Assembly: GCA_041657445.1 (NCBI GenBank)
Contig: JBBABV010000002.1
Location: 3,364-67,363, forward strand
Origin: Minisyncoccota bacterium
Lineage (GTDB): Bacteria; Patescibacteriota; Minisyncoccia; Phycocordibacterales; UBA9973
Direction: 5' to 3'
Length of the DNA stretch: 64,000 nucleotides
Shown: piece by piece, positions 44,001 through 64,000 of the stretch
Numbering within the stretch: the first letter of the stretch is position 1
Layout of the letters: every line of letters begins with the position of its first letter
Made by a program: the position numbers and the translations under genes
Notes under the pieces: model-generated
Database searches by the model: none
Told to the model about the DNA's origin: nothing
What the model saw: only the letters and a program-made list of their open reading frames with translations

Positions 44001-44093
44001 AAACAACAAAAGAACAGGACTATTATCGTCCATATTACTATGTTTTGCCTTATTTTTCAATTGTTATACCGATTAGTACTTTTTAAACCTTTG

Positions 44094-44371
44094 CGCGGCT
44101 GATGGGTGCTGACCCCACGACCTCTCCCGTGCACTGATCCAATATTTTCATAAAGGCGTGGACTATATCTTCACCTTGCCAAAAAAGGTTTAGGTGCTCC
44201 TGTATCTAGTCTCTACGGTGCCCCCAGCCTTATGCTAGGGTTCCCACGGTATTAGCATATCTAATAAGACTTAGCCTTCACCGTTATCCAGGAGAGTTTC
44301 AATCCGCCATTTCGACGAAAAGCTGCAATTTGTGCTCACAGGGGAGTATTCTACCGTTGAACTACAGCCGC
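44094..44371 (-). tRNA. tRNA-Asp (anticodon GUC) interrupted in the anticodon loop by a 206-nt group I intron (~44132-44337). 5' exon 44338-44371, 3' exon 44094-44131.
   Basis: Exons are GCGGCUGUAGUUCAACGGUAGAAUACUCCCCUGU | CACGGGAGAGGUCGUGGGGUCAGCACCCAUCAGCCGCG, which closely matches bacterial tRNA-Asp. The 5' exon ends in U and the intron ends in G. Confidence 0.7.
44132..44337 (-). mobile_element. Group I intron (no ORF) in tRNA-Asp
   Basis: Minus-sense core elements in the correct order: P-like ...CCGUGGGAA (44241-44253), R-like UAGAGACUAGA (44205-44220), S AAGAUAUAGUCC (44158-44175). Confidence 0.65.
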
Positions 44372-45039
44372 TTTTTTATATACTCTTCAAATACATCTTT
44401 TTTCCTACCAAGGAACAACCCTGATGTACTTATCCTATTATACATAAAATAATATAATTTCAAAGCATTTATAGTACTATATTGTAGGCGACAAAACTCT
44501 CTCATTTTTGACCTATAAATACATCCTCCCTCTAATCCAAAAAAGTTAAGTTCAGTATGAAGTCTTTTAATAAATTCATACGAGCATGAAGTAAATGTCA
44601 ACTATAATACGAGGTGTGTTGTTTTTCTATTTTTATGAACCCTACCCATCCAGATATTTCCATCACCATCAAAATATCCCCTGACAAAATAAGAAAAATA
44701 TTCCTTAGGAATATTTGGAATAGCTAAGCTTTTTGTTTTCCTTTAAGTAAAACCAAGTTCCCTTAAATCACTACACATTTCTTTATTACCAATTTGTAAT
44801 CTATAGATAATACTTGATTTTGCATTCTTAGGTACCCTAATATTTATTTGATGCTCAGATTCAATCTCTTCTTTAATACTATATATTAAATCTTTATCAG
44901 TTGTCTGTATACACCAGTATTCTCCTCCTCTTTTGTTTACAGTTATGTATCCGTCTGCGGTAAAAAATCCTAGAATGTAGAACATTTCTCTCGTCCATTT
45001 TTTGAAAAAATCTTTGTTTATTTTCTTTTGTATTGGCAT
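44362..45039 (-). pseudogene. Decayed free-standing LAGLIDADG homing endonuclease gene, split into two ORFs (44743-45039 N-part, 44362-44601 C-part)
   Basis: The N-part has the canonical motif ILGFFTADGYITV. The C-part has a degenerate second motif LNFFGLEGGCI. The two are separated by a gap or frame break. Confidence 0.55.
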
Positions 45040-45143: not shown

Positions 45144-45229
45144 CTACGCCGACATACTAAAACCTTATTAAATATAACTTAAGAAAGTTTTGTTTGCAAA
45201 TAATGAAAAAAATGTATATACTGCAACAT

Positions 45230-45531
45230 AGCGGGGTGGAGAAGTGGTATCTCACAAGGCTCGACATAATGGGCCCCTCAATAGGAAACTATTGAGTTCG
45301 CATTTGCCAAATTCGGGGAAGTCCTCCCTTGTAATTTTTACAAGAAAGATAATCCCGAGCTAAACCTCACTAATCAGTGAGAAAATGTGTAGAGACTAGA
45401 TGGCAAACTCCTTAATTCTTTATTAAAGAAAAGGAGATGGGATAGTCCAGACCACAAATTCATAGTGATGTAGTGAAAACTATAGTGGTAAGCATAACCT
45501 TGAGACAGCCGTTCGAATCGGCTCCCCGCAA
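45230..45531 (+). tRNA. CAU-anticodon tRNA (Met; possibly the initiator, given A1·A72) interrupted after U33 by a 231-nt group I intron (45262-45492). 5' exon 45230-45261, 3' exon 45493-45531.
   Basis: Exons are AGCGGGGUGGAGAAGUGGUAUCUCACAAGGCU | CAUAACCUUGAGACAGCCGUUCGAAUCGGCUCCCCGCAA. Anticodon stem CAAGG/CCUUG, T-arm AGCCG-UUCGAAU-CGGCU, acceptor GCGGGG/CCCCGC. Confidence 0.65.
45262..45492 (+). mobile_element. Group I intron (no ORF) in the CAU tRNA
   Basis: Plus-sense P AAUUCGGGGAAGUCC, Q AAUCCCGAGC, R GUGUAGAGACUAGA, S GAUGGGAUAGUCCAG in canonical order. The intron ends in G. Confidence 0.65.
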
Positions 45532-45615
45532 CATTTTTTTAAAAAAGAAAGAACACTTTCTTCTTTTTTAGTTCGTTTTTGACACTTTTTCGTTACTTTT
45601 TTCAAAAAAAATTCC

Positions 45616-58038: not shown

Positions 58039-58369
58039 AACATTCAATTTATTAATACAAATTTTTAATAAACATGTATAATATATGAATTTTTATGAAA
58101 ATATCTTAAATGTGTTTTTTATACATTATAAGTTTTGTGAATTATTATGATTTCCAAATTTCTTAACAGGAATCGAACAATTAGTACTTCTCAGCTCTAC
58201 ACATTACTGTGCTTACACTTAAAGCCTATCAACCTGATCATCTCTCAGGGTTCTAAACGATTCCTCATCTTGAAGATGGCTTCCCTCTTAGATGCTTTCA
58301 GAGGTTATCCATTCCCGACATAGCTACCGAGCAGTCCACTTGGCAGTAGAGCTCGTACACCAGAGGTCA

Positions 58370-58400
<31 letters not shown>

Positions 58401-58460
58401 ATCTTCTCAAGAATCAACGAGTGCAGTAGATAGGAGACCAACCTGTCTCACGCATGTTTT

Positions 58461-59694
58461 CACACATTACTGTATGCATTGGACTATACTTTCCCTATAA
58501 TACAGGGGTCGGTTTGTAGTCTCTACAAAGAACAAAAGTTCTTCTCGGTATTGTCCTCCACTTATAATGGATGGGATTTTACCGATAACCCCGACTTATT
58601 CTTTATTTTTAAATAAAGACCGCCGTGATTTGATTGGTTACTCTATCTTTTTAACAAACGAAAAAACTTCTTAATAACAGTATTTTATAATTTCTCTTAG
58701 GATTCAGATTGTGGAATAGTCGTTTATATTACTAAAAACAACTTCTCCACGGTCTGACATTTAATCCATTATTACTAATGGTACTGACTATACCTTTTCC
58801 AAAACTTTCCTGCCTTGGAACTGACGTGTTAGCAAGCATGTCGCTCGCTCTGTCTATTTACTAGACAAGTCGATACGGGGATTATCAATCTTATAAGTCA
58901 TTGATGGGGCGATAAATGGAGAAACTATTGAGAGAAAAAGATTGTAATATTCTTTTCCAATTGCAATTTTCCATTGATTTCTATCTTTTACTATTGTCGC
59001 AGATATATTATATTTCTTTTTTAGAAAATCAACAATTATTTCTTGATCTTCATAAGAAAACGAATGTGTACTTAAAGTCACATTACTGTGATTATTTGAA
59101 CCATCATCCATATACCATATCGCTAACATTCTATCAGAAAAAATAGGAAGTACTTCTTTTGGAAATATTTTCACATTATCTTTATAAAAGATTTTATGTA
59201 TAATTCCAAATCCTTCCAAACTTCTCGTATGAAAGTACCATGATATTTCTTTAAGATTTCTTTTTCTATTTGTCCATGAAATTTTTCTTGGACTAGAAGA
59301 AACAAAACTCTTTAATATTTCATACTTCCACCAGACATAATCTTTTTGTTTTTCGCCATGATGCACACGAAATCGAGCTGTTAAAACACCCCTAATTCCA
59401 TTTGACCTGCACTCAAGCCGTGCATCTCCTAACAACGACCCTATAATCACATCTAGCTGATGTGATGGAAATGTTGATTGTAATCTTCCCACGATATTAT
59501 CCATTATGTGTATTTTATCACACACAACCGGACTTCACCGTTATGAGTCAGTTTATTTTTTATCTCTTTTTTATTTTGACAAGCGAGGAGCGAGTGAAAA
59601 TAATAATTTTCACTTCGTCCGAGCGAAGTCAAACTATGGATTTTAATAAATCCATGTCCTCGTAGAAAGTCATTAGCTGGGCTCATGAATCCTT
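58461..59694 (-). mobile_element. Group I intron A in 23S, near the site equivalent to E. coli ~L2585-2593, carrying a LAGLIDADG gene
   Basis: 5' exon ends ...GAGCUGGGU. The 3' end has P-like, R GUAGAGACUACA, S AGUAUAGUCC, and a P9 CAUACA-GUAA-UGUGUG hairpin, then an omega G before AAAACAUGCGUGAGACAGG. Confidence 0.55.
58854..59525 (-). CDS. LAGLIDADG homing endonuclease, double-motif, intron-encoded
   Basis: Two motifs, VIIGSLLGDARLE and AIWYMDDGSNN. 223 aa. Confidence 0.8.
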   Translation of the reverse strand: MCDKIHIMDNIVGRLQSTFPSHQLDVIIGSLLGDARLECRSNGIRGVLTARFRVHHGEKQKDYVWWKYEILKSFVSSSPRKISWTNRKRNLKEISWYFHTRSLEGFGIIHKIFYKDNVKIFPKEVLPIFSDRMLAIWYMDDGSNNHSNVTLSTHSFSYEDQEIIVDFLKKKYNISATIVKDRNQWKIAIGKEYYNLFLSIVSPFIAPSMTYKIDNPRIDLSSK

Positions 59695-59774
59695 ACCCAG
59701 CTCGCGTACCTTTTTAATTGGCGAACAGCCAAACGCTTGGGAGCTTCTCCGCCCCCGCGCTAAGGTGAGCCGAC

Positions 59775-60301
59775 CACTTATTTACATGCAATGAAACCAT
59801 TGCAAAACCATTATTACTAATGGTGCAGACTATACCTTTATATTAGATTTGTTCTAAATATACCAGCGTCTTATAACAATGTTTATATTGTTATCTTCAT
59901 TTTATTCTGTAATTCTTACAGATACAAAAATCCAGTCGTTACGGGGTTATGAAAGTCCTATCTTATATCTCATAGATTTGATGATATAAGGACAAATTAG
60001 GTCAACAAGTTTTTGAGTCTCTTTTTTATTGCAATATATTCTATAACCTTTATCTCTATCTTTGTAAGACAACATAGATATGTTAAATTTATTCTTAACA
60101 ATAAAACAAAGTTTCTCAATCTCTTGTAGAGTAAAAGAATAAGCATTTTCTTATTCCAATATTTACTTTCTAAACTTCCCACGGTGTTGACCATATATAA
60201 CGCGAATTATATCATGGCTTTCTCCGTTATGAGCTGATTTAATACATAAATTTATGTATGAGAGAATTGTTCAGACTCTCTCTCCTCGACATTCGGTGTT
60301 T
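59775..60301 (-). mobile_element. Group I intron B in 23S at the L2500-equivalent site (between CUCGAU and GUCGGCUC), with a decayed ORF remnant at 59997-60194
   Basis: 5' exon ends GGCACCUCGAU. The intron ends ...S-like AAGGUAUAGUCUG plus a P9 CCAUUA-GUAA-UAAUGG, then G, then GUCGGCUC. Confidence 0.55.
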
Positions 60302-60555
60302 ATCGAGGTGCCGAACTCCGCCGTCGATATGAACTCTTAGGCGGAACTAGCCTGTTATCCCTAGAGTAGCTTTTATCCGTTAATCTTCCACCACATCTAA
60401 TGTGTATGGTCGGTTCACTATGTTCTGGTTTCCCACCTGCTTGGGATGTACCCCTCACAGTCAAGCCAGCTTGTGCCATTACACTATCGGCACGGTTTCC
60501 ATTCGCGCCTAGCTGACCTTTAAACCCCTCCTTTACTTTTTAGGCTCTTTGTTAA

Positions 60556-60922
60556 CTGCATATCGCTATGCAGGACGGACTATACATTCATCCTTTTTAG
60601 GATGGCTGGTTTGTAGTCTCTACGGGTGATCTATTTAATATAAGTAACAAATATTACTATTAAAAGAAAGAAAATTTTGATTATCTCTAATTTCTTCTAA
60701 CAACTTAATAATTTTTTCATTATTATCCGTGCACTATATTATAGTCTTTCCCTCGGTGTTGTCCACTTGGGATTTCACCGATATTCCCAACTTTTTTCAA
60801 TCACGATTGATCGTGAAAGCCCCCCTTGTATTTATTTTTTCTGCAGGTGGATTATACCTGCCTGAGGCTGCAAAGTTCGAGGATTCGAATAAAATAAAAT
60901 CTTATTTCAAGTCCTCGAGGGT
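60556..60922 (-). mobile_element. Group I intron D in 23S (no ORF), near the E. coli ~2200-equivalent region
   Basis: 5' exon ...UUUUACUGGGGCUGU. The intron carries P-like (60763-60777), R GUAGAGACUACAAACC, S AUGUAUAGUCCG, and a P9 CUGCAUA-GCGA-UAUGCAG, then UUAACAAAGAGCC. Confidence 0.5.
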
Positions 60923-61228
60923 ACAGCCCCAGTAAAACTATCCACCAGATACTGTCTCAATGCGTTTTTTCCGCACAGGTTAGAACATGCCTTCAAAAAG
61001 AATGGTATTTCACTGTTGAGTAGATTTCAGCCGAAACCGAAAACATCAGACCTCTCCCATCTATTCTACGCAGTTTAAAAACATGCTCAATATCAAGTTA
61101 TAGTAAAGCTTCTAGGGTCTTTTCGTCTAACTGCACTTAACCGGCATCTTCACCGGTATTGTATTTTCACCGAGCTGGTCCCCGAGACAGTTCTCCGGTC
61201 ATTACACCATTCGTGCGCGTCGGAACTT

Positions 61229-61971
61229 CATGTATTTACATTACTTAATCTCCAAAAATGGAGAGCAAAACCCACTATTACTAGTGGCACAGACTATATC
61301 TTCATCTCAATGCATTTTGAATATCTTTCTTTGAATACTTTCTTTTTCCACTTGGATTCATTTGAAAAACTAAATCTAAAATCTTTTTTAATCCGTTCTT
61401 ATTCTTGTGCATATTTTTTTGCATAAGAAAACAAACTTCTTTAAAACGATTAAAGTCATTCTGTTTCTCTGAAATCAAAGGGTGTTTTTCAAAATGAGGA
61501 ATTATTTTACTGATTAGGTTTTCCAAACTTCTCACTTCATATTTAAGTGTTTTGTCTGAATAATCTCTTCTGATAAAACCACATTGAAAAATGTTTTGCA
61601 TCAGGAAAAGAATTTGTGCTCTATCTTCATTTTGACTGACAGAAAAACTTGGTTTGGTTTCCCAGCCCAGAGTTAGTTTGTCTCGCTTTGAAAAAGAAAC
61701 ACTAAAGCATCCTTCTCCATCCACATATCCTGAAATATATTCTTGTATATTATGCTTTTTTATATTGAGAGCCGGCATGTTATAGATTATAACAATAATC
61801 TATCTAGGTCGCCACTATACAGAGGCGACCTAAGTCGTTACGGGGTCACTATAATTTGATTATAGGACTTCCCACGGTATTGTCCTTAATTACTTTCGCA
61901 CTTTCATTAAGGATTCCACCGTTATAAGCCGGATTTAATCCGAAAATCACTCTTCGGATGGGCAGTTCTCT
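61229..61971 (-). mobile_element. Group I intron C in 23S at the L1917-1931-equivalent region (GUCGGGU|AAGUUCCGAC), carrying a LAGLIDADG gene
   Basis: Exon junction reconstitutes GUCGGGUAAGUUCCGAC. P-like CAAUACCGUGGGAAGUC, Q-like CCCCGUAACGAC, S AAGAUAUAGUCUG plus a P9 CCACUA-GUAA-UAGUGG. Confidence 0.55.
61302..61778 (-). CDS. LAGLIDADG homing endonuclease, single-motif, intron-encoded
   Basis: Motif ISGYVDGEGCFSVSF. 158 aa. Confidence 0.8.
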   Translation of the reverse strand: MPALNIKKHNIQEYISGYVDGEGCFSVSFSKRDKLTLGWETKPSFSVSQNEDRAQILFLMQNIFQCGFIRRDYSDKTLKYEVRSLENLISKIIPHFEKHPLISEKQNDFNRFKEVCFLMQKNMHKNKNGLKKILDLVFQMNPSGKRKYSKKDIQNALR

Positions 61972-61991
61972 ACCCGACAAGGTATTTCGCT

Positions 61992-62205
61992 CTAGTCACC
62001 TGTAAAAACTAGGACTCTATCTTCATCCTCTTTCGTAAGAAAGTAGGATGCATGGCGTTGGTCTCTTGTTAACCATGATTGGATTCTCATACATTACTGC
62101 ATAAGTAGGTAGCGTTTTTGTGTAATTTTTCTGTTTACTTTTCCTACAACAGTCCCAATCCTTTTTGACTCATTATTACAACACATATTGTAAAATATGT
62201 CAAAA
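61992..62205 (-). mobile_element. Small (214-nt) group I intron E in 23S between GGUCCUAAGGU and AGCGAAAUACC (L1900-equivalent region)
   Basis: Splits the otherwise contiguous CUAAGGUAGCGAAAU. R-like CAAGAGACCAAC and S-like AAGAUAGAGUCCUAG. The intron ends in G. Confidence 0.5.
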
Positions 62206-62240
<35 letters not shown>

Positions 62241-64000
62241 CAGGGCTTATATCAGTCTGCATATCACATTGCTGTAATACACCGCCGATATTTGACCTTC
62301 TGGCATTGGTCAGGTGTCACCCCCTATACATCCTCTTACCGAGTTCGCAGGGAGCTGTGTTTTTGGTAAACAGTTGCCAGAGATACTTTCGCTGCGGCCC
62401 TCTAAATAAATAGAGGGCAAGCCTTATCCCGAAGTTACGGCTGCTTTTTTGCCGAGTTCCTTGGGGACCACTCACTCGTTCGTCTTGGTCTACTCGACCT
62501 GATCACCTGTGTCGGTTTGCGGTACGGATTCTATATTCATAAGTTTAGAGATTTTTCTTGGAAGTGTGCTTTGCATTATCATCCTCAGCCGAAACTGAAA
62601 ACTTTTCATTTCTCTTGGAATTGCTATTTAAAGCAGTGTACGGATTTACCTATACAACATCCTTAAGAAACAAACTTCAAATCCAATAATGAGCAATGCA
62701 TACTACACTCCGTCATCCCATCACAAAATACAGAAGTCAGGGAATATTAACCCTGTGTCCATCGGGTACGGATTTCTCCATCCCCTTAGGCCCGACTAAC
62801 CCTTGGCTGATTGACATTACCAAGGAAACCTTGATCTTTCGACGGTGGGCGTTCTCAACCCACTTGCGGTTACTTGTGCCAACATTCTTACTTCCACACA
62901 CTCCAGAGGCCCTCACGGGTCCTCCTTCACTGCTTTGGATTGCTCTCACGAACAATCCGAGTGGAACACTCTCCTACCACTCGTGAACTTCATAGAGGAG
63001 CCAACAATAATTATATTGTTGGCAGAAAAATTAAATAATTTCGGTTGGGGTGAAACATTTTAAATGCTTGATTAATGTTCCACATCCTAAAGTGATCTCT
63101 CCAATACAAGAGAGCGAGCTCAAGAATTTGAGCACTTTAGAACTCAAAAATACAATAGAAAAAAATTAGCATTCTGTTTTGTATTTCTGACCCAAAACTT
63201 AATAAAGAACAAATAACTGAGGCTGACTGTAAATTTTACAGTTTTTCTCCTTTTCCCAATAGGAGAACTTCAATACAATATCAGCCAGCCTTCAGCAAAA
63301 ACATTTCCTCTATGAAATTCACGAATCCTCAAATTCGGTATCATACTTAGCCCCAATTATTTTCGACGCAAAATCTCTGGATGAGTGAGCTGTTACGCTA
63401 TCTTTAAAGGATGGCTGCTTCTAAGCCAACCTCCTCATTGTCAGAGAAATTTCACCTTCTTATTTTACACTTAGTATGAATTTAGGGACCTTATTTAGAG
63501 ATCTGGGCTGTTTCCCTTTTCACCTGTGGAGCTTAGCCCCCACGGTGTAACTGCCGTGCTTTAACTTCTGGTATTCGGAGTTTGATAGGTTTCGCGAGAT
63601 TGCTCCCTGTCGAAACCTTCCAGTGCTCTACCCCCAGAAAGAAACACACGACGCTAGCCCTAAAGCTATTTCGGAGAGAACCAGCTATTACCAGGTTCGA
63701 TTAGCTTTTCACTCCTTACCACAAGTCATCCCAACGCGTTGTACGACGAACGGGTTCGGACCTCCATTTCACTTTCGCAAAACTTCATCCTGCTCATGGC
63801 AAGCTCACCTGGCTTCGGGTCTTATGCATACTACTTAATCGCGCTATTAACACTCGGTTTCCCTGTGGCTTCATGGTTCTCCCATTTAACCTTGCAGTAT
63901 GAATAAACTCGTTGGCTCATTCTTCAATAGGCACGCCGTAGCAGAGTAAACTCTGCATCGACTCCTTGTAGACATATGGTTTCAGGTCTATTTCACCGCC

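Follow-up and report, generated by a model that had tools for sequence, protein, structure and literature searches.

The 64,000-nucleotide stretch of Minisyncoccota (Patescibacteria) DNA analysed here, which we call the window, carries on its minus strand a tRNA-Asp(GUC) gene divided by a 206-nucleotide (nt) group I intron; the coordinates of the exons, the intron and all other features discussed are collected in the table. The 5' exon (GCGGCUGUAGUUCAACGGUAGAAUACUCCCCUGU) ends in CCCCUGU, while the 3' exon (CACGGGAGAGGUCGUGGGGUCAGCACCCAUCAGCCGCG) opens with CACGGGAG and runs to the discriminator G at 44094, without an encoded CCA. The intron begins with GAGCAC and ends with AUCAGUG, its terminal base at 44132 being the omega-G. 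Once the exons are joined, ARAGORN calls a tRNA-Asp(gtc) of 73 nt, including base 44093 past the discriminator, with a normal cloverleaf; the splice junction, marked here and below by a slash, reads CCUGU/CACGGG, and the predicted mature anticodon loop is CUGUCAC. In E. coli and yeast tRNA-Asp, aspartate identity is known to reside in G73, G34, U35, C36, C38 and G10, and all of these bases can be read from the window sequence. The original prediction, made from the letters alone, had described such a split, near-canonical tRNA-Asp, and its coordinates prove exact, with the feature on the minus strand.

The spliced exons were aligned with the intronless tRNA-Asp genes of relatives, to which the 5' exon corresponds base for base. 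Those genes run CCUGUCACG unbroken across the predicted junction, and some of them (for example those at loci L163 and L197) share an odd T-loop with the window gene. This T-loop, GUCAGCA, has G at positions 54 and 58 rather than U and A, and it is accompanied by a short D-loop of 7 nt. The same combination is found at nine other intron-bearing loci and at three intronless ones (L163, L176 and L197), and we therefore regard it as a lineage marker and not as a sign of decay. The T-loop variant is recorded for the window, L004, L005, L009, L019, L024, L085, L100, L111, L163, L176 and L197. Within the 206-nt intron there is no open reading frame (ORF) of 60 amino acids (aa) or more, and the listed ORF at 44362..44601 (minus) reaches no farther into the 5' exon than its first 10 nt; the intron is thus ORF-less, as had been claimed, with a decayed LAGLIDADG gene lying directly 5' of the tRNA.

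Several features identify the intervening sequence as a group I intron. The R (GUAGAGACUAGA), S (AAGAUAUAGUCC) and P4 strands are located in the correct order, in line with what had been noted from the sequence, and helices P3 to P8 follow in canonical order, including the P3/P7 pseudoknot. The 5' exon ends in a U (44338) that forms a U.G wobble at the splice site, and the intron closes on the expected G. Rfam Intron_gpI (RF00028) matches 44139..44373 (minus) with 42.7 bits and an E-value of 4.9e-9 in a 2.1-kb search. Moreover, 99 homologues found in other genomes can be aligned with the intron from end to end. Of the 88 columns conserved to 90% or more among those sequences, the window copy matches 86; the two deviating columns are the two sides of a single P3 pair, changed in compensatory fashion from G-C to U-A. 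Such full-length alignment and conservation amount to more than chance. The compact architecture, with P2 present and without P2.1, P5abc or P7.1/7.2, fits subgroup IC3, and the joining-region signatures were compared, by eye, against the Azoarcus and Synechococcus seeds (64-69% identity).

We wrote a P1-P9.0 model with the P3/P7 pseudoknot on the window sequence and counted its pairs on an alignment of 100 introns, A2, consisting of the window and its 99 homologues. Standard pairs occupy 90.4% of 5818 cells, a share that drops to 36.7-41.7% once the 3' partners are shifted one to three columns out of register; changes on both sides of a pair occur in 41 of 60 pairs (855 cells), and none of 500 shuffles attains any of the observed measures. 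Four rows of A2 are imperfect (L129 is a false call, L136 an intron of another type, and L038 and L044 have problems at their ends), and these can only depress the pairing figures. Compensatory changes are seen in P3, P4, P5, P6 and P8; for the first pair of P4, for instance, 60 sequences have A-U and 38 have U-A. At the 5' splice site, U 44338 faces G 44326, a U.G pair in all 100 sequences, and the first intron position covaries within P1. At the other end, covariation of P9.0 fixes the omega-G one base downstream of that helix, at 44132. Both the fold and the exons are under purifying selection. A minimum-free-energy (MFE) fold of the single sequence, the kind of folding that had been proposed as a check for P1-P9, independently yields P1, P3, P4, P5, P5a, P6, P6a and P8. 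No convincing pairing was found for P10.

Table. Features of the tRNA-Asp locus, helices of its intron, and neighbouring elements (window positions)
Feature	Coordinates	Strand	Details
tRNA-Asp(GUC) 5' exon	44371-44338	minus	34 nt; tRNA positions 1-35, ending G34 U35; ARAGORN on joined exons and alignment with intronless relatives
Group I intron	44337-44132	minus	206 nt, no internal ORF; Rfam, 99-homologue alignment, covariation
tRNA-Asp 3' exon	44131-44094	minus	38 nt; C36 to discriminator G73
P1	44323..44341	minus	CUGU plus intron GA (44341-44336) / UUGCAG (44328-44323)
P2 hairpin	44319-44313 / 44309-44303	minus	7 of 7 pairs compensatory; 81% of cells paired
P3	44294-44289 / 44202-44197	minus	CUCCUG / CAGGAG; encloses P4, P5, P5a, P6 and P6a; 5 of 6 pairs compensatory; 98.8% paired
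P4	44284-44279 / 44251-44246	minus	inside P3; 99.0% paired
P5	44275-44274 / 44256-44255	minus	98.5% paired; G-C 76, C-G 17
P5a	44270-44267 / 44262-44259	minus	also in MFE fold
P6	44245-44244 / 44218-44217	minus	99.5% paired
P6a	44240-44234 / 44228-44222	minus	also in MFE fold
P7	44213-44207 / 44165-44160	minus	G, bulged A, GACUA / UAGUCC; putative guanosine-binding helix; 99.0% paired
P8	44196-44192 / 44176-44172	minus	between P7 strands; 4 of 5 pairs compensatory; 86.3% paired
P9.0	44159-44158 / 44134-44133	minus	AC / GU; C-G 65, U-A 22
P9 hairpin	44156-44150 / 44145-44139	minus	GAAA loop; 6 of 7 pairs compensatory
LAGLIDADG homing-endonuclease pseudogene	45039-44362	minus	directly 5' of tRNA-Asp; link to intron uncertain
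Promoter-like hexamers	45171-45222	minus and plus	TTGCAA-17-TATATT (minus), TTGCAA-17-TATACT (plus)
Initiator-type tRNA-Met(CAU)	45230-45532	plus	split; A1.A72 mismatch
fMet intron	45262-45492	plus	231 nt; after loop position 2
23S rRNA gene	58100-64000	minus	split by several insertions
LAGLIDADG-like ORF in 23S	58854-59525		223 aa
LAGLIDADG-like ORF in 23S	61302-61778		158 aa
Group-I-like R/S motif pairs in 23S	62012-62066, 60577-60749, 58481-58524		

We conclude that the locus is very probably a working tRNA-Asp(GUC) gene from a member of the Patescibacteria, ultra-small bacteria also termed the Candidate Phyla Radiation (CPR), and probably from one of the Paceibacteria/Parcubacteria, with a compact, IC3-like ribozyme of group I and of the Asp.4Ug class splitting it between U35 and C36. 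In the mechanism we propose, which follows established group I chemistry, the precursor would be transcribed through the tRNA cluster and the intron would fold into P1-P9, with the guide GCAG holding the exon end CUGU in P1. Free guanosine bound in P7 would then attack after U 44338 of the wobble pair; next, G 44132 at the end of the intron, placed by P9.0, would take the place of the guanosine, and the freed 5' exon would attack after G 44132 to yield CCUGU/CACGGG. The exons are probably aligned by the anticodon stem of the tRNA itself, by analogy with the Anabaena tRNA-Leu intron, for which such an arrangement is attributed to Zaug et al. 1993 (via PMC3984707).

Anatomy, homology, purifying selection and the presence or absence of the intron among relatives are shown here, and catalysis and splicing in vivo are inferred. 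A number of observations weigh against our conclusion. The Rfam score lies below the curated gathering score of 50, so that the covariance search suggested by the original prediction returned a match that falls short of Rfam's own cut-off, and for this reason the intron is missing from a default Rfam scan. The score is lowered because the Rfam alignment puts P1 on the acceptor stem; by the account of Williams 2020 (bioRxiv 10.1101/2020.01.27.920355), not one of the 12 seeds then behind the group I model was bacterial. P7 is identical in 99 of the 100 sequences, and covariation consequently neither supports nor contradicts it. P9 of the window contains two adjacent U.U mismatches, which several relatives have too, and the MFE energy is indistinguishable from that of shuffled sequences (z -0.73), so the single-sequence fold recovers the helices with an energy no better than shuffles and is uninformative if taken alone. 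Our survey for tRNA-Asp covered 64 kb of this genome, and a second intact copy may lie elsewhere.

If such a copy exists, the gene could be a disrupted pseudogene holding an inactive relic intron, with tRNA-Asp supplied from another place in the genome. The sub-threshold Rfam score, the mismatches in P9, the non-canonical T-loop, the 64-kb view and the decay of the adjoining endonuclease gene would all suit this explanation, which we nevertheless consider improbable: the intron retains 86 of its 88 conserved positions and its sole deviations are compensatory, the odd T-loop and D-loop recur in intron-bearing and intronless genes alike as a mark of lineage, and no other tRNA-Asp turned up in the 64-kb window or in some 120 related loci, each spanning 8 kb at most. 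CPR genomes, besides, usually have single copies of their tRNA genes. A different objection concerns the splice register. Shifting both splice sites two bases upstream (CU/GU...CAG/UGCAC) leaves the length at 206 nt, satisfies both the U preceding the intron (U-1) and the omega-G, and produces a tRNA-Ala(UGC) interrupted after loop position 2, which ARAGORN accepts for the window and for most homologues. We reject this register as very improbable indeed, since in all 100 sequences the wobble G of P1 has the U of CUGU/ as its partner whereas the alternative U would face an A, since the P9.0 covariation sets the omega-G at 44132, and since the intronless homologues carry GUC. The acceptor stem, furthermore, has G3-C70 and not the G3.U70 pair that defines tRNA-Ala, and the discriminator is G73. 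The same ambiguity affects another class, as Asn(GUU).4Ug introns can likewise be read as Thr(UGU).2Ug by a shift of register; the seed Pgr210.Thr.2Ug of Williams 2020, which belongs to the same sequence subfamily, may likewise represent Asn.4Ug under the alternative register.

The reading we favour, a functional tRNA-Asp split by an Asp.4Ug intron, also has consequences for annotation. ARAGORN in default mode called no tRNA-Asp on the unspliced 64-kb window, and with introns allowed it recovered the neighbouring fMet intron and missed that of tRNA-Asp; group I introns lie outside what tRNAscan-SE 2.0 was designed for (PMC8450103). Because standard tRNA finders miss the split gene, a genome of this kind would be scored as lacking tRNA-Asp.

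To place the intron among its relatives, we searched GTDB genomes, one for each species, for R and S cores separated by a variable P8 (TAGAGACTAGATA N20-50 AGATATAGTCC), which returned at least 120 contigs, almost all from Patescibacteria. Exons were mapped by brute force, an approach adopted because ARAGORN with introns had missed the tRNA-Asp case: all U/C-bounded 5' sites were combined with all G-bounded 3' sites, requiring an anticodon stem across the junction and a tRNA call by ARAGORN. Among the contigs listed, exons could be assigned at 93 loci. The host is tRNA-Asp(GUC), interrupted after loop position 4, at no fewer than 51 loci (the window, L001 and 49 further species-level examples), tRNA-Tyr(GUA) at the same position at 20 or more, tRNA-Asn(GUU), again after position 4, at 18 or more, and tRNA-Leu(UAA) after position 3 at two or more, with two odd calls in addition. 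CUGU/ as the 5' context and GCAG as the guide are common to all the Asp, Tyr and Asn cases. Among the introns listed, the nearest neighbour of an intron sits in the same host tRNA in 86 of 96 cases, and the closest relative of the window intron is that of L045, at 86.7% identity. These sequences indicate that intron lineages are mostly host-specific with occasional switches, and the presence of the tRNA-Asp intron's lineage after CUGU in tRNA-Tyr(GUA) and tRNA-Asn(GUU) as well suggests occasional moves between tRNAs that share this motif. Thus tRNA-Asp is a frequent group I host in Patescibacteria; the earlier view of it as an uncommon host stands relative to the four classical bacterial cases and gives way before a published class with at least 49 other species-level examples.

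Close relatives inform us further about the history of the insertion, which is present in some and absent from others. L001, from another sample, is 99.85% identical to the window, with no differences in the tRNA, the intron or the endonuclease region, and L002, also from another sample, is 100% identical and ends at 44436, before tRNA-Asp. At L206, by contrast with the window, a locus of the same gene order (gatA, a gene for a 213-aa protein, tRNA-fMet, tRNA-Met, tRNA-Asp, a 181-aa ORF of no known function, two tRNA-Thr genes and dapF) has neither the Asp intron nor the fMet intron, and the Asp intron is therefore a discrete, optional insertion. At L136 (3185-3439), an intron of a different group I lineage, with divergent P3-P6 sequence and about 40 extra nt after the 5' strand of P7, occupies the Asp.4 site behind the same endonuclease family; this site has consequently been colonised more than once.

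Directly upstream of the tRNA-Asp gene lies the pseudogene of a LAGLIDADG homing endonuclease. Its translation contains two LAGLIDADG motifs (ILGFFTADGYI and VRGYFDGDGNI) and matches Pfam PF14528 with an E-value of 2.9e-7 and 31.1 bits, above the cut-off of 22.5. The frame is interrupted by in-frame stops, TAA at 44745-44743 and TAG at 44604-44602, where the relatives carry sense residues, E or N in place of the first and R, Q, T, L or S in place of the second; each stop could have arisen by a change of one base, for example from GAA to TAA and from CAG to TAG. The last codons of the gene coincide with the first bases of the tRNA, and its final stop is formed by U8-A9-G10. Eight related loci end at the same +10 offset into the tRNA, where U8-A9-G10 probably serves as the stop as well. 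Among the loci listed, 36 of the 50 other tRNA-Asp loci with an intron have a homologue of 31-62% identity in this position, on the same strand and usually 0-25 nt from the tRNA; 21 of these are full-length genes and the remainder mostly C-terminal remnants, whereas no endonuclease gene was found beside the 38 Tyr and Asn intron loci listed. Homologues were noted at L005, L015, L021, L024, L045, L071, L074 and L111, among others, and at L123-L202. PF14528 is matched by 19 of 19 intact homologues, whose closest solved relative is 2dch (E 1.6e-7).

A search from the protein side gave a different perspective on this association. A profile of the 19 intact copies (alignment A1) found at least 543 relatives in metagenome contigs, and of the best 80 of these, 67 were evaluable. 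The endonuclease gene is followed by an intronless tRNA-Asp at 52 of the 67 loci, by an intron-bearing one at 14 and by neither at one. The family is thus tied to the 5' edge of tRNA-Asp rather than to the intron, and its position at that edge in 66 of 67 loci suggests that the cleavage target may lie there. The intron insertion site was rejected as the target, given 52 loci at which an intact endonuclease accompanies an intronless tRNA-Asp with identical anticodon-stem sequences. An unbiased sample of tRNA-Asp loci, sought through DapF synteny, provided a single usable locus, L206, with neither endonuclease nor intron; most of the DapF-synteny contigs break at the tRNA cluster or differ in gene order. 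The contigs L203, L204, L208, L209 and L212, which come from close relatives, end in or beside the tRNA-Thr/tRNA-Asp cluster upstream of dapF, which suggests assembly breaks, possibly caused by strain-level presence or absence of the intron or the endonuclease gene.

One could imagine that intron and LAGLIDADG gene form one mobile unit, in which the endonuclease cuts tRNA-Asp genes lacking it and repair copies the endonuclease gene and co-converts the intron 34 nt away. The ORF-less intron would then be a passenger, in a cellular analogue of the collaborative or trans homing documented in phages (PMC3984707). We regard this reading as unlikely. The presence of an endonuclease or C-terminal remnant 5' of 36 of the 50 intron-bearing tRNA-Asp genes, set against none of the 38 Tyr and Asn loci, speaks for a joint unit. 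The pairing of an intact endonuclease with an intronless tRNA-Asp at 52 of 67 loci speaks against it, as it implies that the intron is not needed for self-immunity and that its insertion site is not targeted; tRNA-Tyr and tRNA-Asn, moreover, retain introns of this lineage with no endonuclease nearby, and the frequency of the endonuclease beside intronless tRNA-Asp in an unbiased sample has one locus, L206, behind it. An equally unlikely reading, offered tentatively, is that a widespread, free-standing LAGLIDADG family is based at the 5' edge of tRNA-Asp(GUC) in Patescibacteria and that the Asp.4Ug intron, 34-37 nt downstream, may spread with it by co-conversion. If this were true, phage collaborative homing would have its first counterpart in a cell, based on a tRNA and driven by a LAGLIDADG enzyme, and it would be clear why tRNA-Asp is the commonest host of the intron lineage. 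In that case, the RNase P cut at the tRNA 5' end would also remove the stop codon of the endonuclease mRNA, thereby coupling expression to tRNA processing. The arrangement would differ from the phage systems, collaborative (trans) homing and the intronless homing of free-standing endonucleases (reviewed in PMC3984707), in its cellular genome, in using a LAGLIDADG enzyme rather than GIY-YIG or HNH, and in that the window-type endonuclease, known here from sequence, is mostly found beside intronless tRNA-Asp. In the literature searched we came across no account of this endonuclease family at the tRNA-Asp 5' edge. A survey from 2024 on the LAGLIDADG genes within rRNA insertions of CPR bacteria (PMC11270868) makes no mention of tRNA-associated or free-standing copies; those enzymes come from the same phylum and belong to the same superfamily, and unlike the window endonuclease they are encoded inside the insertions. 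The family at tRNA-Asp is the part of the locus that deserves further work.

The surroundings of the gene are bacterial. The window carries ftsE/ftsX, prfB, dapF, gatC/gatA, htpX, lemA and a type IV pilin gene, and its tRNA genes include tRNA-Gln(CUG) and tRNA-Thr(CGU). DapF homologues with a named source are annotated as Candidatus Paceibacterota, Parcubacteria or Nomurabacteria, and the related loci all come from metagenome-assembled genomes of Patescibacteria. An organelle origin, suggested by AT-rich, intron-bearing rRNA, was rejected in view of the ordinary bacterial genes, these two tRNAs and the Patescibacteria relatives.

Other intervening sequences lie in the same stretch. A second split tRNA gene, for an initiator-type tRNA-Met(CAU), is found 860 nt from tRNA-Asp; its intron is of the classical fMet.2Ug type and scores 63.4 bits with Rfam Intron_gpI, above gathering, with a match at 45252-45468 in the default scan. 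The 76-nt gap between tRNA-Met (minus) and tRNA-fMet (plus) contains back-to-back promoter-like hexamers, which are consensus matches only. Within the gene for 23S rRNA, the Rfam large-subunit rRNA match is broken by gaps of some 386 nt and some 950 nt, and the gene contains two LAGLIDADG-like ORFs and three pairs of group-I-like R/S motifs; Rfam Intron_gpI had no match in the 23S region at E <= 0.01. Broken, insertion-bearing 23S genes are typical of CPR rRNA (PMC11270868).

The class to which the tRNA-Asp intron belongs has been catalogued before. As reported by Williams 2020 (bioRxiv 10.1101/2020.01.27.920355), the four classical bacterial cases (Leu.3Ug, Arg.5Ug, fMet.2Ug and Ile2.5Ug) have been extended to 21 tRNA/position classes, and the accompanying seed alignment holds Wba81.Asp.4Ug, Mba143.Tyr.4Ug and Pam37.Asn.4Ug. 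With its insertion between anticodon-loop positions 4 and 5 (CUGU/CAC), its U-1 and its omega-G, the window intron is an additional member of Asp.4Ug and not a new kind of element. It resembles Wba81.Asp.4Ug in host tRNA, insertion point, U-1 and omega-G, the absence of an ORF and a length of about 200 nt, yet the two are 65% identical and differ in P3-P6, where the window has GAUAACGGUGAA and the seed CUAAUUCGGGGAAA. Its identity to Mba143.Tyr.4Ug, a member of the same subfamily with identical R, S and P4 cores, is 70%, higher than to the Asp.4Ug seed, which means that the Asp site is occupied by two or more lineages. The Tyr.4Ug and Asn.4Ug introns of CPR bacteria have the CUGU/ context and the P1 guide GCAG in common with the window intron, and A2 aligns members of all three classes; the Tyr and Asn introns differ in their host tRNAs and in having no LAGLIDADG gene nearby, and the Pam37.Asn.4Ug seed has an insertion after the GAGACUA strand.

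The resemblance extends to the classical IC3 introns of Azoarcus tRNA-Ile(CAU), Anabaena and other cyanobacterial tRNA-Leu(UAA), and cyanobacterial tRNA-fMet, which are likewise ORF-less elements of about 200 nt that interrupt the anticodon loop, run P1-P2-P3-P4-P5-P6-P7-P8-P9.0-P9, lack P5abc and P7.1/7.2, and close P9 with GAAA. The window intron departs from them in its host, in its insertion at 35/36, in a sequence identity of 64-69% over aligned bases, and in J3/4-P4, which reads AUAACGGUG where the classical introns have AAAUUCGG. The window thus adds one more well-documented case to a large and structurally constrained intron lineage, whose occurrence after CUGU in three tRNAs with GUN anticodons (Asp, Tyr and Asn) provides material for studying how ORF-less introns change hosts.

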